From a virus (Duplodnaviria > Heunggongvirae > Uroviricota > Caudoviricetes), in IMG/VR virus record IMGVR_UViG_2690316152_000008, positions 1 through 12,720 of that record: a DNA stretch of 12,720 nt; one strand, given 5' to 3'. Positions 1 to 12,720 of the stretch are shown piece by piece. The notes under the pieces were generated by a model, which saw nothing but the letters and a program-made list of their open reading frames with translations, was not told the origin of the DNA and ran no database searches. Position numbers and translations under genes: made by a program. Within the stretch, counting starts at the first letter, position 1; every line of letters begins with the position of its first letter.

Positions 1-40
1 GATTTACAGCGGCAAGTTTTACTTCAAATGAATGTTTCAT
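1..40 (-). CDS. 5' end of an unidentified CDS running off the window edge (N-terminus MKHSFEVKLAAVN...)
   Basis: ATG at 40..38 on minus strand, preceded by AAGGTG 6 nt upstream; open to position 1. Only 13 codons visible. Alternative reading: the 3' end of a plus-strand gene stopping at 40-42 (TAA). Cannot be resolved from this window. Confidence 0.25.
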   Translation of the reverse strand, partial: MKHSFEVKLAAVN

Positions 41-92
41 AAACTGCACCTTCAGATGTCAGATTATGTCCAACATTTGGGGTGCAGTTCAA

Positions 93-157
93 TCAGCGTC
101 GCATCAGGCATCCTGCTCAAATGCCGGATGCGGCGTAAACGCCTTATCCTGCCTACA
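93..157. repeat. REP (repetitive extragenic palindromic) element pair downstream of cpxA
   Basis: GCCGGATGCGGCGTAAACGCCTTATCCTGCCTACA at 123-157 matches the enterobacterial REP consensus; an inverted partial copy (GCGTCGCATCAGGCATCCTGC) lies at 96-116. A further hairpin GCGGAGTTTAACTCCGC at 160-176 overlaps the cpxA stop codon. Confidence 0.7.
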
Positions 158-166
158 ATGCGGAGT

Positions 167-1540
167 TTAACTCCGCTTATACAGCGGCAACCAAATCACC
201 AGCCGTAAACCGCCCAGCGGGCTGTCTTCTGCTTTAACCCAGCCGCGATGCTGCTGAATGGCGGTTTCAACAATCGCCAGCCCCAAACCTGTACCGCCAG
301 ATTCACGATCGCGTGCTTCATCGGTACGATAGAACGGACGGAAAATCTGTTCGCGATCTTCCGGGCTAACGCCAGGACCATCGTCGTCCACCGTAATGGT
401 GATACCGTCTTTATCTACCGCAAAGCCCACTTCAATCTTCGTATGGGAATAACGCAGAGCATTACGAACAATGTTTTCCAGCGCACTTTCCAGGGCGTTC
501 GGATTGCCGTACAGCGGCCACGGCCCAGGAGGGAAGTTAACTGTCAACGACTTGCCCATTTGCTCGGCTTCGAACGCCGCGTTATCCAGCACTTCACTCC
601 ACAACTGATTGGCTTTGATGGTCTCGCTAACCAGCGCGTTTTTTTGCTGATTACGTGACATCACCAACAGGTCGTTAATCATGCTGTCCAGACGTTGCGC
701 TTCGGTTTCAATACGCTCCAGTTCCTTGCTTTCACCGCTACGACGGCGCAGTAACGCCGTACCCAGTTGTAGACGCGTCAGCGGGGTGCGCAGCTCGTGA
801 GAGATATCAGAAAGCAGACGCTGCTGAGAGGTCATCATGCGCTCCAGCGCGGTGACCATCTGGTTAAAACTGGCACCAGCGGCAAGGAATTCCTGTGGCC
901 CCGCTTCAAGTTCCGGGTGCTGGCGTAAGTTTCCCTGGGCAACTTCATCGGCAGCGTTTTTCAGCTTACGCGCCGGTTTTGCCAGACTCCAGGCCAACCA
1001 CAACAGCAGCGGCGTACTGACCAACATGGTGACAATCAGCAGTAATAGCGGGCGGTCAAACAGTAAGTTAATGAAATCGGATTGAGAACTGCTGGCCGGA
1101 CGAATCAGATAAAGTTGGTAATTATCTTCGCCATCACGCACGGAGAACGGACCGACCAGTTCCACGCGGCCATACTTTTTCTTCTGCGGATGATCGGCGT
1201 TATCGGCCTGACCAATAAAGTTACGAATGATCTGCATTTCGCTGCGTTCAGCGCCGATCACGCGGCCTTCGGTGGTCACCAATAACAAACGCTGTCCTGG
1301 CGGTGCCCACTTATCAATCGCCCGGAACAGACGCCGCCACCACATTAAATCGTTGGGCGGATCGTTCGCCAGCTCCGCTTCGACATGCTGCTCAATCATC
1401 AGACCCTGACGCTGTTCGCTATCCAGAAGCTCGGTCATCTGGCGTGAATCGAGCTTGGGTAACATCAAAACCAACATCAACACCAGCGCCAGCGTCAGCC
1501 AGAAGATGGCGAAGATGCGCGCGGTTAAGCTGCCTATCAT
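167..1540 (-). CDS. cpxA: Two-component sensor histidine kinase CpxA (457 aa)
   Basis: ORF translation has two N-terminal TM segments, an H-box (SHELRTPLTRL) and G-box (GGTGLGLAIV); length and sequence recognised as enterobacterial CpxA; 4-bp ATGA overlap with the upstream response regulator gene. Confidence 0.97.
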   Translation of the reverse strand: MIGSLTARIFAIFWLTLALVLMLVLMLPKLDSRQMTELLDSEQRQGLMIEQHVEAELANDPPNDLMWWRRLFRAIDKWAPPGQRLLLVTTEGRVIGAERSEMQIIRNFIGQADNADHPQKKKYGRVELVGPFSVRDGEDNYQLYLIRPASSSQSDFINLLFDRPLLLLIVTMLVSTPLLLWLAWSLAKPARKLKNAADEVAQGNLRQHPELEAGPQEFLAAGASFNQMVTALERMMTSQQRLLSDISHELRTPLTRLQLGTALLRRRSGESKELERIETEAQRLDSMINDLLVMSRNQQKNALVSETIKANQLWSEVLDNAAFEAEQMGKSLTVNFPPGPWPLYGNPNALESALENIVRNALRYSHTKIEVGFAVDKDGITITVDDDGPGVSPEDREQIFRPFYRTDEARDRESGGTGLGLAIVETAIQQHRGWVKAEDSPLGGLRLVIWLPLYKRS

Positions 1541-2235
1541 GAAGCAGAAACCATCAGATAGCCGCGACCACGCAAGGTTTTAAACCATGGGTGACCATCT
1601 TTACGATCCGGCAGTTTACGACGCAGGTTGGAAATGTGCATATCGATAGCGCGGTCGAAGGGCGTCAGGCGTTTGCCCAGCACTTCCTGGCTTAAATGTT
1701 CACGGGAAACCACCTGACCCAGATGCTGTGCCAGCAAATAGAGCAGGGTAAACTCAGTGCCGGTTAACTCCAGCGTTTGCCCGTCGAAGCTGGCTTCCTG
1801 ACGGCCTGGATTCAGCACTAAGGCATCAACTTCAAGCGTCGGTGAACCGTTGTCGTTGTTTTGCTGTTGCTCGCTCCAGTGCGAACGGCGCAGGATCGCG
1901 CGAATACGTGCCACCAGCTCACGATCATTAAACGGTTTCGGGAGATAGTCATCTGCGCCCAGCTCAAGGCCGAGAACGCGATCAAGTTCACTGCCGCGCG
2001 CCGTCAACATAATGACAGGCGTCTGGTGTGTCTGGCGAAGTGCTTTTAATGTGTCGATACCATTTTTCTTCGGCATCATTACATCAAGCAAAAGTAAATC
2101 AATGCTGTCGTCCAGAAGATCAAGCGCCTGTTCCCCATCGTGGGCAACAATCACGTTGAAGCCTTCCATCTCGAGCAGCTCCTTTAATAGGGAAGTCAGC
2201 TCTCGGTCATCATCAACTAACAGGATTTTATTCAT
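1537..2235 (-). CDS. cpxR: OmpR-family response regulator CpxR (232 aa)
   Basis: Receiver domain (LLVDDD...LLLLDVMMP...K) plus winged-helix C-terminus; recognised as CpxR; GGAGG SD upstream of the ATG at 2235; operon partner of cpxA. Confidence 0.97.
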   Translation of the reverse strand: MNKILLVDDDRELTSLLKELLEMEGFNVIVAHDGEQALDLLDDSIDLLLLDVMMPKKNGIDTLKALRQTHQTPVIMLTARGSELDRVLGLELGADDYLPKPFNDRELVARIRAILRRSHWSEQQQNNDNGSPTLEVDALVLNPGRQEASFDGQTLELTGTEFTLLYLLAQHLGQVVSREHLSQEVLGKRLTPFDRAIDMHISNLRRKLPDRKDGHPWFKTLRGRGYLMVSAS

Positions 2236-2384
2236 TGTTTAAATACCTCCGAGGCAGAAATTACGTCATCAGACGTCGCTAATCCATGACTTTACGTTGT
2301 TTTACACCCCCTGACGCATGTTTGCAGCCTGAATCGTAAACTCTCTATCGTTGAATCGCGACAGAAAGATTTTGGGAGCAAATG
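2236..2384. promoter_or_regulatory. Divergent cpxRA / cpxP promoter region with a CpxR box
   Basis: Minus-strand GTAAA-ACAAC-GTAAA (plus 2291-2305, TTTACGTTGTTTTAC) matches the CpxR consensus GTAAA-N5-GTAAA; a second half-site GTAAA lies at 2336-2340; sits between divergent cpxR and cpxP starts. Confidence 0.75.
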
Positions 2385-2885
2385 ATGCGCATAGTTACCG
2401 CTGCCGTCATGGCCTCAACGCTGGCAGTCAGTTCATTAAGCCACGCTGCTGAAGTCGGTTCAGGCGATAACTGGCATCCGGGTGAAGAACTTACGCAGCG
2501 CAGTACGCAGAGCCATATGTTCGACGGCATAAGTTTAACCGAACATCAGCGTCAGCAGATGCGAGATCTTATGCAACAGGCCCGGCACGAACAGCCTCCT
2601 GTTAATGTTAGCGAACTGGAGACAATGCATCGCCTTGTCACCGCAGAAAATTTTGATGAAAACGCTGTGCGCGCACAGGCAGAAAAAATGGCGAACGAGC
2701 AAATAGCTCGTCAGGTTGAGATGGCAAAAGTCCGCAACCAAATGTATCGCCTGTTAACGCCGGAGCAGCAAGCGGTTTTAAACGAGAAACATCAACAACG
2801 AATGGAGCAGTTGCGCGACGTGACGCAATGGCAAAAAAGTTCATCGTTGAAGCTATTGAGTAGTAGCAACTCACGTTCCCAGTAG
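2385..2885 (+). CDS. cpxP: Periplasmic Cpx-pathway protein CpxP (166 aa)
   Basis: Signal peptide ([21 protein letters not shown]) and LTxxQ-type repeats ([18 protein letters not shown]). The track ORF starts at tandem ATG 2382; the second ATG (2385) has better spacing from GGGAG (2374-2378) and gives a 166-aa product. Confidence 0.93.
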
Positions 2886-2925
2886 TAAACCCTGTTTTCC
2901 TTGCCATAGACACCATCCCTGTCTT

Positions 2926-2952
2926 CCCCCACATGATGTGGGGGTTTTTTTT
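2926..2952 (+). terminator. Rho-independent terminator of cpxP
   Basis: Perfect inverted repeat CCCCCACAT-g-ATGTGGGGG (2926-2944) followed by T8 (2945-2952). Confidence 0.8.
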
Positions 2953-3037
2953 ATCAATTACTTACATGCAATCAAAAGTAAAAACAGGTACTTATCGAAA
3001 GCTGTAAGGGGTTGGAGCGGTTTCAAAATTTCTTGAG

Positions 3038-3058
3038 TGTGGACACTATGTGGACACT
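3038..3058. repeat. Tandem direct repeat TGTGGACACT x2 beside the integrase 3' end; candidate arm-type Int binding sites of the attachment region
   Basis: TGTGGACACT at 3038-3047 and 3049-3058 (11-bp register), 14 bp from the int stop codon. Interpretation as arm sites is by analogy to lambdoid/P2 att architecture. Confidence 0.4.
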
Positions 3059-3071
3059 CAGAGGGGGAAAT

Positions 3072-4052
3072 TTATAACGTCACTCCGCCTTTTAGTGGAT
3101 TCAGAGCGACGGCATTTTGCAGATAGTCAGGCGCAAGGTGCGCATAGGCCATCGTCTGCTGAATGCTCGCATGTCCCAGAATCTGTTGCAGTGCGATTAT
3201 ATTGCCCCCATTCATCATGAAATGGCTTGCGAATGTATGCCGCAGGATGTGGGTTGCCTGATTGGGTGGTATATCAGGTTTCACTCTGCGTAAAATCCCG
3301 CAAAATTTCTCATAATCAACTTTGAATAATTTGGCGCTGGCCTCCTCTTTAACTTTTTTCTCCAGTTCCTCAGAAATCGGCACGGTTCGCTTTTTACCGT
3401 TTTTGGTTTTCAGGAAGGTAACCCTGCAATTTGTAATCTGTGCTGGTTTTAGCGTGGCAACTTCCGTCTATCTTCCTCCAGTGCTCAGACATAAAAGCGC
3501 GACAAGTAAGTCATCACCAGCCAAAACATTTAACAGTTTTTCGATTTCTGCTTTTTCCAGGAACGTCATTTCAGGGTTGGCCTCCGCCAGTGGCGGCAGT
3601 CCGTGAATTGGGTGTTGCCCAGAAAATTCATCCAATTGAATTAATTTTGTGAACATGCCGGATAATCGGTACATGTCACGGTTTATCGTTGCGGCACTGA
3701 TACCATCACGTAGTCGCATGGAACGATAATCCATCAAAGCCCTTTTGCTCATCCTGCTCACTGGTATATCACCTATGCCGCTGATGGTTTTGAGTAGATG
3801 ATTAAACTCTTTTGTTCCATGCTCGTGGTTTTGCCCGTGATATTTCCACCAGATGTCCAGCAACTCACTCAAAGTCCGGCGGTCTGCTCGCTGGCCTCCC
3901 CATTCTTTCTGACTGGCATTGGCGATTGTGTATCGCTCAAATGCTAGTGCTTCAGCTTTTCTTTCGAATTTCCTGCGGATGCGTTTTCCGTCGCGACCGC
4001 GAGGTCTAATGTCCACTTCATAGCGACCATCATCGAGCTTCTTAATTGCCAT
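3072..4052 (-). pseudogene. int: P2-type tyrosine integrase interrupted by one in-frame amber codon (TAG at 3470..3468)
   Basis: Track ORFs 3468..4082 and 3072..3383 are in the same frame. Read-through translation gives ...LCLSTGGR*TEVATLK...KTKNGKKRTVPISEEL...HILRHTFASHFMMNGG...LGHASIQQTMAYAH, i.e. box I Arg, HxxR and catalytic Tyr of a tyrosine recombinase. The stop sits where Trp is usual (STGxRW); plus-strand 3468-3470 is CTA. Likely true start is ATG 4052 (GGAGG 8 nt upstream, N-terminus MAIKKLDDGRYEV). Confidence 0.8.
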
Positions 4053-4121
4053 AAGAAAGCCCTCCGGCGCTGTATTCACCATCTTGGTAGCAAATGGTGA
4101 AAATGTAATCTTTATATAGAG

Positions 4122-4415
4122 TTAGCCAATCCTTTTTGCGGAGTGGTTGGACTCTGTTGACTCTGGCCCAATGTGCGCGAGAGCCGGTGCGATTTGTCCT
4201 GCGTCCGGCGCGGTTTTATCTGTCATAAGCCATAGAGCATATTTTTGGAATGTGGGATGCATAGTGATTTTTAGCAAAGCTGTGCCACCGGGTTCAAAGT
4301 TTCCTCCTTCATATTTTTTAAGTGTGCTTAGCGGTAACTCTATGATTTCACAGAATTTTGATTGGCTTAGCCCTTCAGCCTCACGCAAGGCCTTAATCTT
4401 TTCGCTTAATTTCAT
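4122..4415 (-). CDS. C: Prophage immunity repressor, P2 C-like (97 aa)
   Basis: Small protein with an N-terminal helix-turn-helix-like segment (LSQSKFCEIIELPLSTLKKYE), immediately upstream of and co-directional with int, divergent from cox, as in P2 C-int. Symbol assigned by synteny and size, not by search. Confidence 0.75.
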   Translation of the reverse strand: MKLSEKIKALREAEGLSQSKFCEIIELPLSTLKKYEGGNFEPGGTALLKITMHPTFQKYALWLMTDKTAPDAGQIAPALAHIGPESTESNHSAKRIG

Positions 4416-4536
4416 TTGACATGGTGCCTATATAGGGACTAAATTCCCTCAAAACTGGAACCTATATAGGTTCCATTGATTTGAGAATAAACCAGCGTCT
4501 AAACGGTTTTGAGTGGTTTAGAAAGGGCTGGATCCT
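4416..4536. promoter_or_regulatory. Lysis-lysogeny switch region with candidate early promoter and operator palindromes
   Basis: TTGACA at 4416-4421 with TAAATT at 4440-4445 (18-bp spacer) on the plus strand; 10-bp palindrome CCTATATAGG at 4427-4436 and again at 4461-4470 (extended to an 18-bp perfect palindrome GGAACCTATATAGGTTCC, 4457-4474); related CCATATATGG at 4546-4555. Confidence 0.5.
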
Positions 4537-4824
4537 ATGAGGGTACCATATATGGACGCTGAAAATTATGTGATTCAGTATCCGCTTGATGCGGTTCATG
4601 TGGATAAATTTGCTGATTTATTAGGGAAGCCAAAGACAGCCGTCAGTGAAATGGTGAAGGCAAATAAATTACCAATTATTGAATTGCGTGATCCTTGCAA
4701 ACCGAAGGCTCGTGCCGGTGAAAAATGGGTTTTCATTCCTGAGTTTAATCGCGCTGTACGTGAGGCGTTTTATAACCGACCGGTTGAACAGCGTGATGCA
4801 TGGCTTTTGTGGATGGGGTTGTGA
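4537..4824 (+). CDS. cox: Cox-like excisionase / switch regulator (95 aa; 90 aa if started at ATG 4552)
   Basis: First gene of the rightward early operon, divergent from the repressor; small basic protein ending ...RDAWLLWMGL. Start ambiguous: ATG 4537 or ATG 4552 (GAGGG 9 nt upstream). Confidence 0.7.
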   Translation: MRVPYMDAENYVIQYPLDAVHVDKFADLLGKPKTAVSEMVKANKLPIIELRDPCKPKARAGEKWVFIPEFNRAVREAFYNRPVEQRDAWLLWMGL

Positions 4825-4826
4825 TT

Positions 4827-4997
4827 ATGAATGAGCCGCGTTGTATTGCTCAGTTACTGCGTAACGAAAGCCCCAGGGCGATTGACTTCACCATCACCCA
4901 CGGGAAGGGTCGCAAGGGAATCATTATCCGCACCAAAAAACAGAGTCCGTTAAAAAAGGCTCTGACCTTTCTGAAAAGCCGGAGGGTCTGGAAATGA
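4827..4997 (+). CDS. Small early-operon protein (56 aa), in the position of P2 orf78
   Basis: ATG at 4827 lies 3 nt after the cox stop; the track's longer version starts at 4800 inside cox; stop overlaps the next gene's start (ATGA at 4994-4997). Confidence 0.45.
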   Translation: MNEPRCIAQLLRNESPRAIDFTITHGKGRKGIIIRTKKQSPLKKALTFLKSRRVWK

Positions 4998-5494
4998 CAG
5001 TGATGACGCTCAATCTCGTTGAAAAACAGCCAGCAGCTATGCGCCGGATAATTGGTAAGCATCTGGCCGTCCCTCGCTGGCAGGAAACATGCGATTATTA
5101 TAATCAGATGATGGAACGCGAACGGCTAACGGTTTGCTTCCATGCGCAGTTAAAACAGCGTCACGCAACGATGCGTTTTGAAGAAATGAACGACGTCGAA
5201 CGTGAACGGCTGGTTTGTGCAATTGATGAACTGCGTGGGGCATTCTCAAAACGCCGTCAGGTCGGTGCAAGTGAGTATGCATATATTAGCTTTTTAACTG
5301 TCAGTCAGCGCCGTACTTTATTTATGCATGCGGGATTGACTGAAAAAGAATTCAACCAGCCATACTGGCGAATTAATGAAGAGTCATGTTACTGGCGTGA
5401 TGCTTTATTTCGTGCGTTACGTGAATTATTCAGTCTGTTTGAGTATGCGCCGACAATTCTGACGTCGGTAAAACCAGAGCAATATCTGCATTAA
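4994..5494 (+). CDS. Early replication protein, P2 gpB-like by position and length (166 aa)
   Basis: GGAGGG SD at 4981-4986, 7 nt before the ATG; same length as P2 B and same place in the early operon. Assignment by synteny only. Confidence 0.7.
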   Translation: MTVMTLNLVEKQPAAMRRIIGKHLAVPRWQETCDYYNQMMERERLTVCFHAQLKQRHATMRFEEMNDVERERLVCAIDELRGAFSKRRQVGASEYAYISFLTVSQRRTLFMHAGLTEKEFNQPYWRINEESCYWRDALFRALRELFSLFEYAPTILTSVKPEQYLH

Positions 5495-5557
5495 GTAATT
5501 AACCAGAGTTTTTAACGCACTTAATCGTGCGGGGCTTCTTTTTGCCTGGAGAAAGTC

Positions 5558-5782
5558 ATGCATACAGTTTCTGAAAATCAGTGCGGTATATACGCATTAC
5601 TGCTGCAACAGGCCAGAACTGAAGCACAGGCCGACGCTGCGACGCGCTTTTCTTCTCATCTTGACGCCATGATTCGCCACATCACAAAGGCGGAGTTATC
5701 CCGCGTGGAGATAGTCGAGCTGCTCAGTCAGGAGTCGGAAAAATTTCACAATATCGGATTGTCTCGCGGGGAGGTGCTTTGA
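5558..5782 (+). CDS. Hypothetical early protein (74 aa)
   Basis: ATG with GGAGAAAG upstream; stop TGA overlaps the next start by 1 nt (TGATG). Confidence 0.6.
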
Positions 5783-6084
5783 TGTCCTGTTCTCGTTCAG
5801 TTGTATTACTGAATAACGCCTTAAAAATCGCCGTTATGGAGAATGGCGATTTGTCTCTTATTCAACTTAGGTTTGATAAAGAAAAACGCGAAATAACTGA
5901 ATCTGTTTTCGCGATTTATCAGAACGAATTAAATCTCCTGTCTGATGTGGTCAATTTACTTGTTAAACGCGCTGTATTTCATAAGCAAATTTCATCCGTG
6001 GATGAACTGACAAAATTAACGACAGAAATCGCCAGCTATTGCGCTGATGAATTTAAGAAGCTGAACGACAAAAGGAGCTGGTAA
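5782..6084 (+). CDS. Hypothetical early protein (100 aa from ATG 5782)
   Basis: GGGAGGTG at 5768-5775, 6 nt before ATG 5782; the track start at 5779 is a TTG one codon upstream; stop TAA overlaps the next ATG (TAATG at 6082-6086). Confidence 0.6.
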   Translation: MSCSRSVVLLNNALKIAVMENGDLSLIQLRFDKEKREITESVFAIYQNELNLLSDVVNLLVKRAVFHKQISSVDELTKLTTEIASYCADEFKKLNDKRSW

Positions 6085-6308
6085 TGCCGGACAACGTAGA
6101 TTTTATTCAGGAACAACAGGCTGAATTACTGGAGCGCCAGATTAATGCGGCAAGGGTAAAACATTGCGGTGCTTCTGCGCTGGTTTGCGAAGAGTGTGAC
6201 GCGCCAATACCTGCTGCCCGTCGTGCGGCTTATCCGTCAGCCACGCGTTGTGTTTCCTGTCAGTCAGTCTTTGAAGCAAAAAACAAACATTACCGGAGAA
6301 CGGCATGA
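6084..6308 (+). CDS. TraR/DksA-family C4 zinc-finger protein (74 aa)
   Basis: CEEC-x17-CVSC spacing in the translation (C-x2-C-x17-C-x2-C) is typical of the phage/plasmid TraR-DksA zinc finger; AAGGAG 6 nt upstream; ATGA overlap with the next gene. Confidence 0.75.
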   Translation: MPDNVDFIQEQQAELLERQINAARVKHCGASALVCEECDAPIPAARRAAYPSATRCVSCQSVFEAKNKHYRRTA

Positions 6309-6580
6309 GTATTCGTATTGAAATTGGCGAACGTTATGTCGTTACCAGTGACAGCTTTCAGTTTATTCTCCACGAGAAAAAGAGAGCTGAAAGCGGTAAA
6401 AACGCCGGTCAGGAATGGCTGGCGGTGGTTGGTTATTACCCGAAATTAAGCCAGCTCGTTTCCGGCCTGATGCATCACGATATTCTGACCGGAAGCGCAA
6501 AGTCTTTTGCTGATTTAAACGCGCAGGTTGAGCAACTCAGCAAGCGTTGTTCAGAGGCTTTTGGCTCATATGGCCGTTAA
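6305..6580 (+). CDS. Hypothetical early protein (91 aa)
   Basis: GGAG 6 nt upstream of ATG 6305; stop TAA 6578-6580 overlaps the start region of gene A. Confidence 0.6.
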   Translation: MSIRIEIGERYVVTSDSFQFILHEKKRAESGKNAGQEWLAVVGYYPKLSQLVSGLMHHDILTGSAKSFADLNAQVEQLSKRCSEAFGSYGR

Positions 6581-8846
6581 AGCCTCCGGGCGTTTTGTCC
6601 CTCCGTCAGCATTTGCCGCAGGCACCGGTGAGACGTTTACCGGTGCTTATGCATGGAACGCGCCACGCGAGGCCGTCGGGCGAGAAAGACCTCTTACACG
6701 TGACGAGATGCGTCAGGTGCAAGGTGTTTTATCCACGATTAACCGCCTGCCTTACTTTTTGCGCTCGCTGTTTACTTCACGCTATGACTACATCCGGAGC
6801 AATAAAAGTCCGGTACACGGGTTTTATTTCCTCACATCCACTTTTCAGCGTCGTTTATGGCCGCGTATTGAGCGTGTGAATCAGCGCCATGAAATGAACA
6901 CCGACGCGTCGTTGCTGTTTCTGGCAGAGCGTGACCACTATGCGCGCCTGCCAGGAATGAATGACAAGGAGCTGAAAAAGTTTGCCGCCCGTATCTCATC
7001 GCAGCTTTTCATGATGTATGAGGAACTCTGCGATGCCTGGGTGGATGCGCATGGCGAAAAAGAATCGCTGTTTACGGATGAGGCGCAGGCTCACCTGTAT
7101 GGTCATGTTGCTGGCGCTGCACGTGCTTTCAATATTTCCCCTCTCTACTGGAAAAAATACCGTAAAGGACAGATGACCACGAGGCAGGCATATTCTGCCA
7201 TTGCCCGCCTGTTTAACGATGAGTGGTGGATTAGTCAGCTTAAAGGCCAGCGTATGCGCTGGCATGAGGCGTTACTGATTGCTGTCGGGGAGGTCAATAA
7301 AGACCGTTCACCTTATGCCAGTAAACATGCCATTCGTGATGTGCGTGCGCGCCGCCAGGCAAATCTGGAATTTCTTAAATCGTGTGACCTTGAAAACAGG
7401 GAAACCGGCGAGCGCATCGACCTTATCAGTAAGGTGATGGGCAGTATTTCTAATCCTGAAATTCGCCGGATGGAGCTGATGAACACCATTGCCGGTATTG
7501 AGCGTTACGCCGCATCAGAGGGTGATGTGGGGATGTTTATCACGCTTACCGCGCCGTCAAAGTATCACCCGACACGTCAGGTTGGAAAAGGCGAAAATAA
7601 AACCGTCCAGCTTAATCACGGCTGGAATGATGAGGCATTTAATCCAAAGGATGCGCAGCGTTATCTCTGTCGTATCTGGAGCCTGATGCGCACGGCATTC
7701 AAGGATAATGATTTACAGGTCTACGGTTTGCGAGTCGTCGAGCCACACCACGACGGAACGCCGCACTGGCATATGATGCTTTTTTGTAATCTACGCCAGC
7801 GTAACCAGATTATCGAAATCATGCGTCGCTATGCGCTCAAAGAGGATGGCGACGAAAGAGGAGCCGCGCGAAACCGTTTTCAGGCAAAACACCTTAACCG
7901 GGGCGGTGCTGCGGGATATATCGCGAAATACATTTCAAAAAATATCGACGGCTATGCACTGGATGGTCAGCTCGATAACGATACCGGCAGACCGCTGAAA
8001 GATACTGCGGCGGCTGTTACCGCATGGGCGTCAACGTGGCGCATCCCGCAATTTAAAACGGTTGGCCTGCCGACAATGGGAGCTTACCGTGAGCTACGTA
8101 AATTGCCTCGCGGCGTCAGCATTGCTGATGAATTTGACGAACGCGTGGAGGCTGCACGCGCCGCCGCAGACAGTGGCGATTTTGCGCTGTATATCAGCGC
8201 GCAGGGCGGGGCAAATGTCCCGCGCGATTGTCAGACTGTCAGGGTCGCTCGTAGCCCGTCGGATGACGTTAACGAATACGAGGAAGAAGTCGAGAGAGTG
8301 GTCGGCATTTACGCGCCGCATCTCGGCGCGCGTCATATTCATATCACCAGAACGACGGACTGGCGCATTGTGCCGAAAGTTCCGGTCGTTGAGCCTTTGA
8401 CTTTAAAAAGCGGCATCGCCGCGCCTCGGAGTCCTGTCAATAACTGTGGAAAGCTCACCGGCGGTAATACTTCGTTACCGGCTCCCTCGCCTTCTGAGCA
8501 CGCCGCAGCAGTGCTTAATCTGGTTGATGACGGTGTTATCGAATGGAATGACCCGGAGGTCGTGAGGACGCTCAGGGGTGCATTAAAGCACGGCCTGAAA
8601 ATACCAAATCGTCAGCAAAGAAACGGAAGCCCGTTAAAACCACATGAAATAGCACCGTCGGCCAGGCTGACCCGGTCGGAACGATTGCAAATTACCCGTA
8701 TCCGCGTTGATCTCGCTCAGAACGGTATCAGGCCGCAACGATGGGAGCTTGAGGCGCTGGCGCGTGGCGCGACCGTAAATTATGACGGGAAACCTTTCAC
8801 TTATCAGGTCGCTGATGATTGGCCGGGATTTTTGTTACCCATTTGA
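6570..8846 (+). CDS. A: Rolling-circle replication initiator endonuclease, P2 gpA family (758 aa from ATG 6570)
   Basis: Translation contains an HUH-type motif (TPHWHMMLF) and paired tyrosines spaced by 3 residues (GYIAKYISK), the hallmarks of RCR initiators of the P2 A type; large size; last gene of the early operon. The track start at 6528 is a TTG; in-frame ATG 6570 gives a P2-A-like length. Confidence 0.9.
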   Translation: MAVKASGRFVPPSAFAAGTGETFTGAYAWNAPREAVGRERPLTRDEMRQVQGVLSTINRLPYFLRSLFTSRYDYIRSNKSPVHGFYFLTSTFQRRLWPRIERVNQRHEMNTDASLLFLAERDHYARLPGMNDKELKKFAARISSQLFMMYEELCDAWVDAHGEKESLFTDEAQAHLYGHVAGAARAFNISPLYWKKYRKGQMTTRQAYSAIARLFNDEWWISQLKGQRMRWHEALLIAVGEVNKDRSPYASKHAIRDVRARRQANLEFLKSCDLENRETGERIDLISKVMGSISNPEIRRMELMNTIAGIERYAASEGDVGMFITLTAPSKYHPTRQVGKGENKTVQLNHGWNDEAFNPKDAQRYLCRIWSLMRTAFKDNDLQVYGLRVVEPHHDGTPHWHMMLFCNLRQRNQIIEIMRRYALKEDGDERGAARNRFQAKHLNRGGAAGYIAKYISKNIDGYALDGQLDNDTGRPLKDTAAAVTAWASTWRIPQFKTVGLPTMGAYRELRKLPRGVSIADEFDERVEAARAAADSGDFALYISAQGGANVPRDCQTVRVARSPSDDVNEYEEEVERVVGIYAPHLGARHIHITRTTDWRIVPKVPVVEPLTLKSGIAAPRSPVNNCGKLTGGNTSLPAPSPSEHAAAVLNLVDDGVIEWNDPEVVRTLRGALKHGLKIPNRQQRNGSPLKPHEIAPSARLTRSERLQITRIRVDLAQNGIRPQRWELEALARGATVNYDGKPFTYQVADDWPGFLLPI

Positions 8847-9106
8847 GTAAAAATACAGCGTGATTTTATATGTCTTTGAATGGATTATGCGAAGCACCTC
8901 TAAGGTAGATGAGGAGCAATAGCGTGTTGAATCAGAAGGCTAAATTGTATTGAATCGTTAGCATGTAATTGAAGGCAGCTATTTGATTCGAGTCATAAAA
9001 GAGCATCTATTTCGGTTAATAAAACCATTGCGAGTGACTTTATGTCGAAGCATAATTCATCTCGAGCGAAGTCTTGCTAGTCTTTCATCGGATTGATGAC
9101 GGGCGC

Positions 9107-9136
9107 AAAAAAACCACCCTGGCAGGTGGTTTTTTT
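9107..9136. terminator. Bidirectional rho-independent terminator
   Basis: A7 (9107-9113), stem ACCACC / GGTGGT (9113-9118 / 9125-9130) with loop CTGGCA, then T7 (9130-9136). Works for the plus-strand early transcript and for the minus-strand small ORF. Confidence 0.7.
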
Positions 9137-9148
9137 GTTTGAAGCATA

Positions 9149-9262
9149 CTAAAGAAAAATACTTACATGGATATTACTGACGTTTACTGACAAACCACTC
9201 GGACTACCATATGGATAGCCAAAGAGGGCCAGAACGAGAATGCAGTAATAGCACTTCTTCAT
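9149..9262 (-). CDS. Small hydrophobic protein, 37 aa (MKKCYYCILVLALFGYPYGSPSGLSVNVSNIHVSIFL); candidate small membrane peptide
   Basis: Not in the ORF track (<60 aa). Perfect AGGAGG (plus 9267-9272) 4 nt upstream of ATG 9262..9260; stop TAG at 9151..9149; the bidirectional terminator follows 13 nt downstream. No homology claimed. Confidence 0.3.
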   Translation of the reverse strand: MKKCYYCILVLALFGYPYGSPSGLSVNVSNIHVSIFL

Positions 9263-9918
9263 ATCGCCTCCTGTAAGCAGAGGGCAATTTCCGCCGATAT
9301 ATGCGCTTCTAAGGCGGAGTGACTATTGAGCGAAGTCTTGCCCTGAAATAATGCTCTGTTTAAACGCAAAGTGATCTGGCATATCACCGAACAGAGGACC
9401 TGAACAACACAATATATAGTATGTCGTTGTTTCTGGTTGCATTTTATGTTGTGTAATACTGGTTTTGCATCAAGGATGTTTGAGCTTTTTTTGATATAGC
9501 TCAAAGTAAAAAGCAGAGACTACGGATGATAAGGTCTTGAAAGCAATGTAAATTTTTTAAAGTTGTGAGTGGCTAGAAATGCACAGTTTCAATATGGCGG
9601 ATTTAAACAAGTAATTAAAAATAGCGCCATAAATTCCAATAAAATCATTATGTTGCGTTTTCTGTGGAAGCTGCGGTGACTCTGAAATTTTCTTTTAGTG
9701 TCGCTGAGGTTTAACAACTCGCTGCGCAAGTAGTTAGTGTTTTTTTAACTCAATGTTCTGATTTATAAGGTTTTTTATAAATCGTGGGCTGATTGCGCGT
9801 ATTCATCTCGTGTTATCAGCAAAGATAAGCGCTATATGCAGAACTGAATGCATATATGATGTCGAAAATGTTATGGGAAAACGTGGATTAGTGTTATAGT
9901 AATGGCTGAAAAACAGCC

Positions 9919-9947
9919 TTGACATAAAATAACAACTGTGATATGGC
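9919..9947 (+). promoter_or_regulatory. Candidate sigma-70 promoter for the ImmA-like gene
   Basis: Perfect -35 TTGACA at 9919-9924; weak -10 candidates ATATGG / TATGGC at 9941-9947 (16-17 bp spacer); 37-45 nt upstream of the ATG. Confidence 0.4.
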
Positions 9948-9983
9948 TGTGCATACTTAACTTTTTTAACGTAGGAGGCAACC

Positions 9984-10469
9984 ATGAGCTATGCAGCTAA
10001 AAAACTGCTTGACCGCTATTGGGATCGCCGACTACCTGTCGATCCGTTTAAGCTTGCTAAAGCGTGGGGTGCTCGTGTTGAAGCACTTGAGGAATCGGCT
10101 TATAACAACGATGGGTTAAGCGGTCTGGCTGTCATCAAAAAGGGTGTCCATAGGATTTATTTTGATTCTAGTGAACATTCTAATCGTCAACGTTTTACTG
10201 TTGCACACGAGTTAGGTCATCATGTGCTGGGGCATACCCAGGACGGAGAGTACCATCGGGATAATGTCGGGAATTATTCAACAGGTGCTCGTGATTACCG
10301 TGAGGTTGAAGCAAACAAGTTTGCTGCTGAGTTGTTAATGCCTGAGTCTGCTATACGTCAATTGGTATCCAGAGAAGGTATTGATAGCACTTTGAGATTA
10401 GCAAGCATCTTTAATGTATCAGAAGCCGCTATGCATTGGCGCTTAAAGAGCTTAGGAATGGCTTATTAA
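9984..10469 (+). CDS. ImmA/IrrE-family (peptidase M78 / COG2856-like) zinc metallopeptidase, 161 aa
   Basis: HEXXH motif in TVAHELGHHVLGH with a downstream Glu-rich segment (EVEANKFAAELLMPE), typical of ImmA/IrrE-type proteases; AGGAGG at 9973-9978, 5 nt before the ATG. No adjacent HTH partner gene. Confidence 0.85.
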   Translation: MSYAAKKLLDRYWDRRLPVDPFKLAKAWGARVEALEESAYNNDGLSGLAVIKKGVHRIYFDSSEHSNRQRFTVAHELGHHVLGHTQDGEYHRDNVGNYSTGARDYREVEANKFAAELLMPESAIRQLVSREGIDSTLRLASIFNVSEAAMHWRLKSLGMAY

Positions 10470-10497
10470 TTAGCCTTTAACTTTTAACCTGTTTAAA

Positions 10498-10535
10498 ATC
10501 ACCTTTACGTTTGTACATGTAAGGGTGATTTTTTT
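10498..10535 (+). terminator. Strong hairpin plus T-run between the peptidase and membrane-protein genes; terminator/attenuator that also sequesters the downstream SD
   Basis: Stem ATCACCTTTA (10498-10507) pairs with TAAGGGTGAT (10520-10529), 10 bp with one G.U, 12-nt loop, then T6 (10530-10535) directly abutting ATG 10536. The right arm TAAGGGTGAT is itself the SD-like sequence of the next gene. Confidence 0.55.
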
Positions 10536-11135
10536 ATGGCTGATATTGATTTATCTGGACAGTCCCCAGAGCAAGGAACCACTCCTAAGGGCGATTTAGA
10601 TCCTGATATCCTTATAAGGCGAGATAGACGGGATGGTATAGAGCGTAGAAGTATGCGATTAGTGCTCTCTGCCGTTGTGCTTTGTTTTGCTTGTACATTT
10701 CTATGGCAGGGGCTTAACTTTGCTTTGGCTGTTGGAAATGGCTTGCTGGAAGCGAAAAGCAGTATTGCCACAGCGATAACACAAAAAGTAGATGCACAAA
10801 CTTGTGTTTCAGCAGAAAAATGTTCTGCTTTATCTGCGGATCCGAAGATGGCTGATGAGAGGATAACACCATCTTCAGACACTAATAAAGTTAGAAAATC
10901 TATTTCTGGTTTATCCACCGATTGGTTATCGGCCAGTTCTCTAATAGCTATTGTTGCATTCATCCTTGGTGTGGGTTTAACTTTGCTTTTGACTCTTCTT
11001 AAATCAGCATTTCAACACCCGACAGATAAAGACTTTAGAACAAAGTCGACATCTAATACTATTGAGTTGGCCACGCCAATCAGTGAATTAATAATTGGTG
11101 TTCTGAATATAATTAAAGACAAACTATCTAAGTAA
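10536..11135 (+). CDS. Two-transmembrane-segment membrane protein of unknown function (199 aa)
   Basis: Charged N-terminus (RRDRRDGIERR) followed by hydrophobic helices LVLSAVVLCFACTFLWQGLNFALAV and LIAIVAFILGVGLTLLLTLL; ends at a convergent terminator. Overlapping minus-strand ORF 10505..10963 judged spurious. Confidence 0.7.
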   Translation: MADIDLSGQSPEQGTTPKGDLDPDILIRRDRRDGIERRSMRLVLSAVVLCFACTFLWQGLNFALAVGNGLLEAKSSIATAITQKVDAQTCVSAEKCSALSADPKMADERITPSSDTNKVRKSISGLSTDWLSASSLIAIVAFILGVGLTLLLTLLKSAFQHPTDKDFRTKSTSNTIELATPISELIIGVLNIIKDKLSK

Positions 11136-11176
11136 AGCATTAGTTGTGATTTTTTATTGGTTTTAGTGATAATACA

Positions 11177-11210
11177 TCTCCAGTACTTATTGTTACTGGA
11201 GAGTATTTTT
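11177..11210. terminator. Convergent terminator hairpin between the membrane-protein gene and the 313-aa gene
   Basis: 9-bp stem TCTCCAGTA / TACTGGAGA (11177-11185 / 11194-11202), 8-nt loop, followed by GTATTTTT on the plus strand; 16 nt from the minus-strand gene stop. Confidence 0.55.
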
Positions 11211-11217
11211 AGTCGTT

Positions 11218-12159
11218 TTATATTTTTAATGTTAGTGAATGATATTCACGAGAGTTCACGTTCGATGTGATGTAATCGGGGGCGTTAACACCAAGAATCG
11301 CAACGAGCAATCGGCAAATTAAAGCCTGCATTTGTTGTAATATGTCATCTCCATATTGATAATTGTTAATAGTGGTAAAGCCAAGTGGTTGACCATGAAA
11401 CATAGCTTCATGAAAGTTTTCATTGCGGATGTTTGTAATGTTTTTTTTGCCTGTAACCCATGATGGTCGTGGTATGCCATAAGTTTTGCAGATCCACTTC
11501 AAGCGCCTGGAGTGATTTAGAGTCTTTTCTGTACACTTGTTCTTTTCTGCCCATGTTAAAGCAAAGCAACTATCCAGTGCCATATAAAGATACTGGAATT
11601 TTTCGAAGCTAAGGTATTGTGGGTTTTGGGATAAAAATAGTGCATGCACTATTGCTGCGATATTTATTGGTGCGTGTTTGGTTTTTTTCTCGCTAGACAT
11701 GTATTTGAGTGCTAATTCTATAACCTCTTTTTCAGAGCACTTGACCAGAATAAAGTCAGTTAATTTGCTGGGTTTTATTGGGGTTGCGTCTAAAAAACCG
11801 GCATCAGTAGTTGTTAATCTTATCCCTTTGAAAAAAGACAGACACCACACAGCAAAATTGAGAGTTTCTAGTGAAGATGTATTTTTTAATTTTAGTGAGT
11901 GTGTTTTGGGTAAGCCAAATACTCGTTGGCTAAAAGGCATTGTGGATATGCCTCCATTGAGGTTATATACTTCTTGGTTTCCTGGGTATATCCAACCGTT
12001 AATAACATTTCTGTGATTGTTTATAAGATTTGTTTTTTCCGCTAGACCGGGTAAAGTAAGTAAAGAAAAATCATCAGTTTCAACGTTAACGTCTACTGGA
12101 TAGTATCCAAACTCAGCTTCAATATCATTGGATTGCTGTTCGTCAACTTTACCTTGCAT
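11218..12159 (-). CDS. 313-aa protein of unknown function with a C-terminal R-N-x3-H (HEPN-like) motif; candidate abortive-infection effector
   Basis: Long AT-rich ORF; GGAG 6 nt upstream of ATG 12159..12157; motif IRNENFHEAMFHG near the C-terminus matches the HEPN R-[NHQ]-x3-H signature. Family not recognised. Confidence 0.8.
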   Translation of the reverse strand: MQGKVDEQQSNDIEAEFGYYPVDVNVETDDFSLLTLPGLAEKTNLINNHRNVINGWIYPGNQEVYNLNGGISTMPFSQRVFGLPKTHSLKLKNTSSLETLNFAVWCLSFFKGIRLTTTDAGFLDATPIKPSKLTDFILVKCSEKEVIELALKYMSSEKKTKHAPINIAAIVHALFLSQNPQYLSFEKFQYLYMALDSCFALTWAEKNKCTEKTLNHSRRLKWICKTYGIPRPSWVTGKKNITNIRNENFHEAMFHGQPLGFTTINNYQYGDDILQQMQALICRLLVAILGVNAPDYITSNVNSREYHSLTLKI

Positions 12160-12186
12160 ACATTGCTCCGGTCAAAAATAGGCTAG

Positions 12187-12216
12187 ATAATTCTCGTAAG
12201 CCTATCATGTTCGCAA
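12187..12216 (-). promoter_or_regulatory. Candidate promoter for the 313-aa gene
   Basis: Minus-strand TTGCGA (plus 12216..12211) and AATTAT (plus 12192..12187) with 18-bp spacer, about 30 nt upstream of the start codon; weak match. Confidence 0.3.
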
Positions 12217-12396
12217 AGTATCCATACCTGTGGATTTTGTAAATTTAAGTTGATTTGTCATTAAATAAGCCGTGCATGCAACAAGTGAATGTTTTTGCAT
12301 GCGTCGGGGATGCCCGTTCCGGCTGCTTGCGGTCAGAGCTGGTGCGGATCCATAGTATCTAAGCAACTGCATTAAAACCGCCCTATGAAGCGGGCG

Positions 12397-12415
12397 GGCG
12401 AGGCGGGGAAAGCAC
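12397..12415. other. P2/186/P4-type cos site (19-nt cohesive-end sequence GGCGAGGCGGGGAAAGCAC)
   Basis: Exact 19-mer at 12397-12415, embedded in a GC-rich region with GGTGCGG-type repeats, between the accessory island and the portal-like gene. Confidence 0.8.
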
Positions 12416-12556
12416 TGCGCGCTGGCGGTGGTGCGGATTTTATTTTTTCAGCGTCTGAGCGCGTCGTGACGGCGTTTAGTCTGCCCGTTGGGGGTTGGTG
12501 TGTCTGCGGGATGTTTTGTGCGGTGGTGAGCGTGTGAGGGCGTGATGACGGGGTGT

Positions 12557-12578
12557 AAAAAAGCCGCCCGCAGGCGGC
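12557..12578 (-). terminator. Rho-independent terminator of the portal-like gene
   Basis: On the minus strand GCCGCC-TGCG-GGCGGC followed by T6 (plus A6 at 12557-12562), 5 nt after the stop codon. Confidence 0.7.
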
Positions 12579-12583
12579 GATGT

Positions 12584-12720
12584 TCAGCCGTTGTCTGTGT
12601 CCAGTGAGTAGTTTTTAAAGCGGATAACCTCCTGACCGAGCCAGCCGTTTATTTCCCGAATCCTGTCCTGTAACGGGATAAGCTCATTGCGGACAAAGAC
12701 CTTTGCCACTTTCTCAATAT
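12584..12720 (-). CDS. 3' end of a capsid portal-like gene (P2 Q position), continuing beyond the window
   Basis: Open frame from the window edge to stop TGA (plus 12584-12586), C-terminus ...RIREINGWLGQEVIRFKNYSLDTDNG; its 3' end faces cos as P2 Q does. Assignment by synteny only. Confidence 0.55.
   Translation of the reverse strand, partial: IEKVAKVFVRNELIPLQDRIREINGWLGQEVIRFKNYSLDTDNG

Follow-up and report, generated by a model that had tools for sequence, protein, structure and literature searches.

We analysed a 12,720-nucleotide (nt) stretch of DNA, called the window below (positions 1 to 12,720 of IMG/VR virus record IMGVR_UViG_2690316152_000008), in which Escherichia coli genes are followed by a P2-like prophage. 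Just past replication gene A of the prophage lies a cassette with a gene for a 37-amino-acid (aa) peptide, a bidirectional terminator and two copies of a 14-bp repeat. This cassette is probably a compact, self-contained module of ~550 bp that resembles toxin-antitoxin (TA) systems of type I and travels as cargo where the gpA-gpQ hotspot of P2 begins. The best reading of its sequence is that of a new family, whose design would be a variant of the type I TA theme with an architecture like that of par(pAD1). As judged from sequence variation among relatives, the two repeats are probably an RNA-RNA interaction site: copy 1 is the seed and copy 2 the target in two predicted transcripts.

The module would work as follows. 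A sigma-70 promoter on the plus strand would make a small RNA of ~74 nt, which would begin with repeat copy 1 (its first 15-17 nt) and end at the terminator. A convergent promoter of the nrdDG type would drive a minus-strand mRNA of ~327 nt to the same terminator, and this mRNA would encode the membrane-targeted peptide. Within the mRNA leader, 65 nt ahead of the AUG, lies the site with which the seed of the small RNA would pair; the terminator hairpins of the two RNAs would be mutually complementary too. Pairing would keep the peptide unmade, because it would block an unstructured ribosome entry or standby region beside a structured leader that sequesters the Shine-Dalgarno (SD) sequence. In addition or instead, the seed-target duplex may be a substrate of RNase III. 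The peptide would appear only when the mRNA outruns the small RNA: in anaerobiosis, under nucleotide stress or upon loss of the element. With an nrdDG-type promoter the mRNA would be made mainly without oxygen, and possibly on release of NrdR at low dATP. We infer both the production of the two RNAs and the repression by the small RNA from the following elements.

9028-9056, plus strand: putative sigma-70 promoter of the small RNA, with -35 TTGCGA (9028-9033), a 17-bp spacer and -10 CATAAT (9051-9056).
9063-9136, plus strand: predicted ~74-nt antisense (antitoxin-like) small RNA; the position of the -10 puts its start at ~9063-9065.
9064-9077, plus strand: repeat copy 1, the 5'-terminal seed of the small RNA; predicted pairing reaches 9078 via G·U.
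9107-9136, both strands: bidirectional intrinsic terminator, common to both predicted transcripts, which are fully complementary over these 30 nt at their 3' ends.
9149-9262, minus strand: 37-aa small protein gene MKKCYYCILVLALFGYPYGSPSGLSVNVSNIHVSIFL, stop codon included, conserved and intact in relatives.
9272-9267, minus strand: SD sequence AGGAGG, 4 nt before the ATG.
9328-9341, minus strand: repeat copy 2, the predicted target in the mRNA leader (complement GCAAGACUUCGCUC), 65 nt upstream of the AUG; it covaries with copy 1.
9354-9396, minus strand: structured leader element predicted by RNAalifold, an outer helix CUCUGUU/AACAGAG around a hairpin GGUGAU/AUCACU.
9107-9433, minus strand: predicted ~327-nt mRNA (171-nt leader, gene, terminator), its start placed by homology to the mapped nrdDG promoter.
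9407-9422, minus strand: NrdR-box-like sequence ATACTATATATTGTGT at ~+12 to +27, a tentative assignment.
9441-9565, minus strand: putative nrdDG-type promoter of the mRNA, with a conserved upstream block to ~9565.
9446-9441, minus strand: -10 TAAAAT of this promoter, which puts the predicted +1 at 9433.
9473-9460, minus strand: FNR site-1 TTGATgcaaAACCA, centred at -33.5.
9504-9491, minus strand: FNR site-2 TTGAGctatATCAA, centred at -64.5.

The original prediction had located the repeats, the terminator at 9107-9136, the open reading frame (ORF) at 9149-9262, its SD sequence and an ATGA overlap with a longer upstream frame, and all of these coordinates are correct. GAGCGAAGTCTTGC occurs on the plus strand of the window exactly twice, at 9064-9077 and 9328-9341, in direct orientation and 264 bp apart. 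By simple arithmetic ~0.02 such 14-mers are expected by chance, and 200 dinucleotide shuffles gave no case with two matches. Direct repeats of at least 13 nt within 400 bp form just two families in the 12.7 kb of the window, of which GAGCGAAGTCTTGC is one. The other, GGGCTTAACTTTGCTTT (10710-10726 and 10973-10989, 16/17 positions matching), lies with both copies inside an ORF of 199 aa. Its spacing of 263 bp is near that of GAGCGAAGTCTTGC, which may be a coincidence or reflect an internal protein repeat.

The predicted promoters converge, and copy 1 is read on the plus strand and copy 2 on the minus strand. The small RNA would therefore be complementary, at its 5' end, to the leader of the mRNA. 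Relatives of the module were collected in four ways: the terminator served as the key for a scan of IMG/VR, plasmids and phages were searched with BLAST, the peptide was used as a query, and metagenomes were scanned for the small-RNA -10 together with the terminator. Among 13 distinct combinations of seed and target, the predicted helix has 17 pairs and 95.5% of its cells are paired, as against 27-45% after a shift of the partner by 1-3 columns. Four pairs of the helix have changed on both sides (G:C to A:U, U:A to C:G, G:C to A:U and C:G to U:A). The covariation score of the helix is 0.220 versus 0.141 +/- 0.017 in shuffles, a value that 0 of 500 shuffles reached. Two classes of module can be told apart: type-A modules carry GAGCGAAGTCTTGCC in both copies and type-B modules GAGCAAAGCCTTACC in both.

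Other changes are on one side only. Within the helix core all of them produce G·U pairs and none produces C·A, provided that the small RNA is read from the plus strand and the mRNA from the minus strand; with the orientation of transcription reversed, every one of them would be a mismatch. The G·U pairs are found at position 9 (L017, L062), 13 (L098), 14 (an 86% identical P2 group, L017 and L083) and 15 (the window). The sole remaining difference between copies is a terminal G-to-T in one P2 subgroup. The predicted energy of the seed duplex is -28.9 kcal/mol for the window and -29 to -33 kcal/mol for the other cognate pairs. Duplex prediction over the full leader picks the site at repeat copy 2 in six out of six variants, with z = -3.7 to -5.7 relative to shuffled seeds. 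In every variant 64-67 nt separate the target's end from the AUG.

One metagenome contig (L083) holds two copies of the module 2.9 kb apart (3354-3433 and 6276-6353), and their seeds differ slightly. Judged by duplex energies, cross-talk between the seed classes may be asymmetric: a type-A small RNA would pair with a type-B target through G·U (-23 to -28 kcal/mol), and a type-B small RNA would pair poorly with a type-A target (-14 to -17 kcal/mol).

The small RNA has a promoter that looks like a constitutive sigma-70 promoter. TTGCGA-17-CATAAT is the only sigma-70-like site between 8800 and 10000. Among 12 aligned representatives with pairwise identities below 93%, TTGCG and GCATAATT are invariant and the spacer sequence is divergent. 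The predicted transcript consists of a single-stranded 5' seed, a middle hairpin (9080-9104) and the terminator hairpin, and it folds with a minimum free energy (MFE) of -27.0 kcal/mol (z = -3.3). The seed is also free of pairing in a consensus fold computed from 11 variants. In this fold the middle hairpin has compensatory changes in 6 pairs despite sequence differences. The terminator hairpin, AAAAAAACCACC-CUGGCA-GGUGGUUUUUUU (A7-CCACC-CUGGCA-GGUGG-U7), has a 12-bp stem with runs on both sides. It was missed by a simple terminator scan and confirmed by folding. Not one family member departs from the hairpin sequence (100% invariance), and this holds also for members derived from BLAST or peptide searches. 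A comparison with all Rfam families at E <= 1 returned only weak matches driven by the terminator (RNAI, P9, Phe leader), and neither ryfA nor sok.

By its pattern of substitutions, the ORF is a genuine gene under purifying selection. It is intact in more than 20 distinct variants, all of which encode 37-39 aa and have an SD sequence, and none of which is frameshifted; the repeats recur in the family too. Even where DNA identity is down to 60-70%, the ORF keeps its length, frame, start codon and SD. Between diverged pairs the ratio of nonsynonymous to synonymous substitution rates (dN/dS) is 0.16-0.41, and differences are enriched at third codon positions. Examples of the peptide are MKRLSYCIILLTLLGYPLGSQSGWSVDISNISVSIVM in an N15-like phage, MNRVCLCILVLTLFGYPVGSQSGWSIYVSHINVNISL on Klebsiella plasmids and MDRRDCMCLFILTLISHLITGQESWMVYLNHISLTVQFY on a Salmonella plasmid. 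The layout is 1-3 charged residues, then a stretch of ~13 hydrophobic residues with an invariant Cys (the hydrophobic segment was identified by inspection), then an uncharged C-terminal half in which polar and hydrophobic residues alternate. Purifying selection reaches into this amphipathic C-terminal part.

The original prediction had proposed to search the peptide against collections of small proteins and type I toxins. In Pfam, NCBIfam and PHROGs neither the peptide nor 12 relatives have a match. Searches of 5.8 billion and 1.84 billion protein sequences returned a handful of entries that are unnamed or labelled "hypothetical". The ORF is rarely called by gene callers, with 3 clusters among the 5.8 billion proteins. 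A prophage remnant in a Logan contig (ERR1623625; L005, 152-715) has suffered a deletion, by which the nrdDG-like promoter, leader and first 16 codons of the small ORF have been fused to DNA immediately preceding the P2 genes for the C repressor and the integrase. The fusion yields a chimeric ORF of 71 aa (P0003).

The predicted mRNA folds with an MFE of -93.6 kcal/mol and z = -3.0. The leader element shows compensatory changes in 6 of 13 pairs (RNAalifold, 11 variants) and is also present in the MFE structure of the window mRNA. In the consensus fold an upstream CUCCG (9319-9315) pairs with the CGGAG of the SD. The probability that the SD is unpaired is 0.18-0.56. A pattern scan for the leader hairpin returned only chance matches in unrelated phyla among genome contigs, and no new loci in IMG/VR.

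The putative mRNA promoter is a near-copy of the host nrdDG promoter with two FNR boxes, from which we infer the action of FNR. The published 54-mer of the nrdDG promoter holds FNR site-2 at -64.5 and site-1 at -33.5 (PMC10245656), and the promoter region of the window matches it. The two boxes at these positions together with the nrdDG -10 characterise an FNR-activated promoter of the nrdDG type, and the window has all three. Positions 9464-9518 are identical to the treC-nrdD intergenic site of K-12 at 54 of 55 positions, with a match in all 5,426 of 5,426 E. coli genomes. The likeness to the nrdDG promoter of E. coli comprises the same -10, the same spacing from the boxes to the -10, and near-identity across both FNR boxes. 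The two differ in what lies downstream: the host promoter drives the anaerobic ribonucleotide reductase, whereas here the gene of a 37-aa peptide on a prophage follows. Both FNR boxes, their 31-bp spacing and the -10 are kept in all family members, and the boxes on plasmids, TTGTTctgaATCAA and TTGATgcaaATCAC, are even nearer the FNR consensus.

Control of this promoter by NrdR may be added, tentatively. The treC-nrdD site of K-12 overlaps the NrdR-box probe of PMC12176259, and an identical copy of CTATATATTGTGT forms the box of the E. coli nrdHIEF probe given in the same paper. At the position of nrdDG box-1 other variants have ACTATATATAGA (L100 among them) or CACTATATGTAG, and in several variants the NrdR-like boxes are displaced, weak or degenerate. 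Separately, window positions 9464-9570 are nearer to the nrdDG promoter of E. coli itself (K-12; L002, 1501-1610; 54/55) than to other promoters of the family. This closeness suggests that the prophage module and the host promoter recently recombined or underwent gene conversion.

The unit that recurs among relatives measures ~550 bp (~9015-9565 in the window), and its copies are 60-99% identical. There are four kinds of carriers. P2-like prophages carry the module at 86-99% identity. In an N15/phiKO2-like telomere phage it lies between repA and the protelomerase gene (71% identity), and in filamentous prophages it lies beside the Zot and secretin genes. The largest group is formed by 426-477 large, mostly conjugative IncF plasmids, found mostly in Klebsiella and also in Salmonella, Citrobacter, Leclercia and others. 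The neighbours of the module are unrelated between carriers, and on plasmids they differ each time. About 150 of 5,426 complete E. coli genomes (~3%) contain the module; among 72 records of P2-like phages there are only 3. Six elements are kept in every member: the sigma-70 promoter, the terminator, the ORF, the leader repeat copy, the covarying leader helix and the nrdDG-like promoter. The 12-representative alignment gives the same picture at higher resolution. Its invariant islands are TTGC(G), GCATAATT, repeat 1, a 37-nt terminator block, the start codon with the SD, repeat 2, the leader hairpin, the mRNA -10 and the two FNR-type boxes. These islands coincide exactly with the predicted elements, and the sequence between them is divergent.

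The same two-RNA cassette could serve a peptide that is not a toxin. The peptide would then be a small accessory membrane protein for anaerobic or low-deoxynucleotide (low-dNTP) conditions, which might modulate, for instance, a transporter, envelope stress or superinfection. The cassette would be a moron in which the small RNA tunes the peptide level, and it would serve neither addiction nor abortive infection. Such a role would fit the N-terminus, which resembles a signal anchor as in TimP, whose endogenous expression is not growth-inhibitory (PMC7667032). It would also fit the regulated promoter, which points to condition-specific use, and the extension of purifying selection into the C-terminal amphipathic part. 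However, a compact autonomous unit in the cargo and maintenance regions of four kinds of mobile elements, with an antisense RNA of its own, has the hallmark of type I TA systems, and neither a partner gene nor an operon context hints at a specific cellular target. We regard an accessory role as rather unlikely. That the ORF is incidental is very unlikely. In that case the minus strand would produce a non-coding RNA or a leader following nrdDG logic, and the plus-strand element would be the 3' untranslated region (UTR) and terminator of gene A. RefSeq indeed annotates nothing between gene A and the ImmA/IrrE gene, and few gene callers predict the ORF. Yet the ORF is kept with its start and SD at a dN/dS well under 1, and plasmids and other phages, which lack a gene A upstream, keep the hexamers of the small-RNA promoter as well.

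The repeats might act as DNA instead of RNA, either as two sites for one protein or as scars of recombination or insertion (a target-site duplication), with the ORF and the terminator as bystanders. Identical direct copies 264 bp apart are what this explanation would predict, and two sites bound by one protein would be expected to covary as well. Nevertheless it is highly improbable. The one-sided differences are all transitions that lead to G·U and never to C·A, a bias that a DNA-binding site does not predict; copy 1 occupies +1 to +15 of a conserved promoter, upstream of a terminator; and no gene for a DNA-binding protein travels with the module. Furthermore, in unrelated replicons the homology extends ~45 bp to the left of copy 1 and ~230 bp to the right of copy 2. 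The copies are therefore internal functional elements and do not flank an inserted module, as had been proposed, and we rejected the target-site duplication on the same grounds. A coupling of the hok/mok/sok type, in which translation of the small ORF depends on an overlapping upstream frame that is the real target of the antisense RNA, has next to no chance of being right. It was suggested by the ATGA overlap, which does exist in the window: an 81-aa frame (9259-9504, TTG start) ends in it. However, this frame is stopped after 5-20 codons in 6 of 11 variants, in Klebsiella, in Salmonella and even in P2 variants of 86% identity, and in the window it starts at 9504, upstream of where transcription is predicted to begin (9433). 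The TGA of the overlap depends on a second codon AAR or AAC (Lys/Asn), and type B reads ATGG. The antisense RNA is convergent at the 3' end and does not lie over the 5' end. We rejected membership in hok/mok/sok, since there is no Hok domain (no Pfam match to Hok_Gef in 12 members at E <= 10), the upstream frame is broken and the stop overlap is a by-product of Lys or Asn at codon 2.

A type I TA module remains the explanation that we favour, and several observations weigh against it. The evidence as a whole comes from sequence comparison and computation, and the toxicity of the peptide is assumed by analogy. Its hydrophobic stretch of only ~13 residues looks more like a signal anchor than a classical pore-forming helix, and one E. 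coli genome has a variant of 68 aa that has lost the stop codon (P0001). An FNR-dependent toxin promoter would be unusual for post-segregational killing. Three of the four double-sided changes in the helix belong to the single split between the type A and type B clades, so that the number of independent events is small. In single-sequence folds the partner of the SD is a 3' segment or a local hairpin instead of the upstream CUCC of the consensus fold. Finally, the search for some family members was keyed on the terminator, though members derived from BLAST and peptide searches carry the same terminator.

In general, a type I TA system combines a small (<60 aa) hydrophobic or membrane-targeted protein from a conserved ORF with an adjacent gene for a complementary antisense RNA. 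The cassette has such an ORF, and it has a predicted antisense RNA with a covarying seed-target helix of 15-17 bp and 30 nt of complementarity in the terminator. Thus the small membrane toxin of the original prediction is the best-supported reading as far as purifying selection on the ORF and a strongly indicated antisense partner are concerned; its toxic part rests on analogy. The closest architecture is that of par(pAD1) from Enterococcus plasmids (Fst, RNA I and RNA II). There, convergent promoters meet at a shared bidirectional terminator; pairing starts at its complementary loops and has a second region in direct repeats that the two RNAs read in opposite directions, and the leader hides the SD (PMC7472228). 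The module here resembles it in the convergent promoters and the shared bidirectional terminator with complementary 3' stem-loops, in the repeats read in opposite directions, the structured leader, the small hydrophobic peptide and the carriage by mobile elements. It differs in having one repeat where par(pAD1) has two (DRa and DRb), in the position of the target 64-67 nt upstream of the AUG instead of over the translation initiation region, in its occurrence in Enterobacteriaceae and in its nrdDG-like toxin promoter. Toxins of the Fst/Ldr family have a PXXXG motif and a charged C-terminal tail. Both are absent here and the family is not matched, and hence we rejected membership in Fst/Ldr.

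A second likeness is to timP-timR (ryfA/STnc2070) of Salmonella and E. coli. TimP is a peptide of ~38 aa with an N-terminus like a Sec signal anchor, encoded by an mRNA of ~300 nt whose translation is blocked by a small RNA via the 5' UTR (PMC7667032). Peptide size, signal-anchor-like N-terminus, mRNA length and targeting of the 5' UTR are all similar, and so are the first 11 residues (MKIRCFCIVLI versus M.R.C.CILVL). In contrast, timR is divergent and upstream whereas the small RNA here is convergent with a shared terminator, and timP belongs to the chromosomal core whereas the module is mobile-element cargo. We considered homology to TimP for the shared M..C.CI.VL start. The TimP hidden Markov model (HMM) NF040796 gives K-12 TimP 86.8 bits and matches none of five family members at E <= 10; hhalign assigns 11% probability over 11 residues. 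These two results led us to reject homology. The Rfam model of ryfA (RF00126) has no match at E <= 1.

In tisB-istR-1, zorO-orzO, shoB-ohsC and dinQ-agrB, complementarity to the antitoxin is likewise limited to 15-20 nt in the toxin 5' UTR far upstream of the SD, within a structured, translationally inert leader. As in tisB/istR-1 or zorO/orzO, the repeat here is located far upstream of the SD, and a block of the standby site, following the standby-site logic of tisB, and/or cleavage by RNase III would therefore be expected. Unlike the small RNA of the module, those of the four systems are encoded divergently or upstream and share no terminator with the toxin gene. Their toxins are unrelated, and their known transcriptional control is by LexA, whereas the promoter here would be of the FNR/NrdR type. 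With hok-mok-sok the module shares a small membrane peptide, residence on enterobacterial plasmids and prophages, and control by an antisense RNA (predicted here). It lacks the Hok domain and a conserved mok frame, and its antisense RNA does not overlap the 5' end. A full-text search of the literature found no paper with the peptide or seed strings, and no FNR-linked type I toxin.

A more far-reaching scenario is possible, if doubtful. The module would be an undescribed type I TA family on four classes of enterobacterial mobile elements, with the toxin under an adopted nrdDG promoter and thereby wired to FNR and NrdR, that is, to anoxia and the dATP/ATP status of the cell. In the gut it would fire when nucleotide pools collapse, upon infection by a competing phage or under replication stress, and so act as an abortive-infection or addiction device. 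The invariant terminator loops would be the entry to a kissing complex as in par(pAD1).

The cassette is invisible to current annotation: it sits in an empty 1.1-kb gap in RefSeq, and the few entries for the peptide are labelled "hypothetical protein". Yet ~3% of complete E. coli genomes contain it, and so do hundreds of Klebsiella IncF plasmids of clinical importance. If the pair is a true TA pair, it would be a new toxin family. It would also bring the convergent par/Fst-style architecture, so far a Gram-positive hallmark, to Gram-negative bacteria. As far as our literature search showed, it would be the first type I toxin found with a promoter that copies an FNR/NrdR-controlled promoter of the host. 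Anaerobiosis and dNTP status would then be linked, in a testable way, to plasmid or prophage maintenance or to phage defence. For the gpA-gpQ hotspot of P2, it would mean RNA-based cargo that protein-centred surveys would miss.

The gene order of the window is cpxA, cpxR and cpxP of E. coli, followed by the integrase, C, cox, B and replication A genes of the prophage. Gene A ends at 8846. The 1.1-kb gap follows, with the cassette inside, then an ImmA/IrrE peptidase gene and two genes of no assigned function. P2, Wphi, L-413C and other P2-like phages align to the window only as far as ~8830, and therefore all DNA after gene A is cargo of the gpA-gpQ hotspot. P2 itself carries tin and old in this variable hotspot (PMC9122126). 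The cassette is the start of this cargo, just past gene A.

The three cargo genes on the 3' side of the module (9984-12159) are a candidate for an uncharacterised defence cassette in the hotspot. The ImmA/IrrE metallopeptidase comes first and has capP as its best PADLOC match (1e-30). The 199-aa protein corresponds to phrog_8096 and the convergent 313-aa protein to phrog_5937; neither is matched in Pfam or PADLOC. At the other end of the prophage, the 3' end of cpxP and its terminator (2886-2952) resemble the region of the CpxQ small RNA on the plus strand. On the minus strand the same positions match Rfam Hrs1 (RF02628) with 44.5 bits, under the gathering score of 56.4. The P2-like integrase gene (3072-4052) directly follows the cpxP/CpxQ region. 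The attachment junction of the prophage therefore lies at ~2950-3070, at the end of the cpxP/CpxQ transcript. Downstream of cpxA, on the minus strand (67-153), there is an element like REP (repetitive extragenic palindrome)/naRNA4 (Rfam RF02564, 40 bits, under the gathering score).

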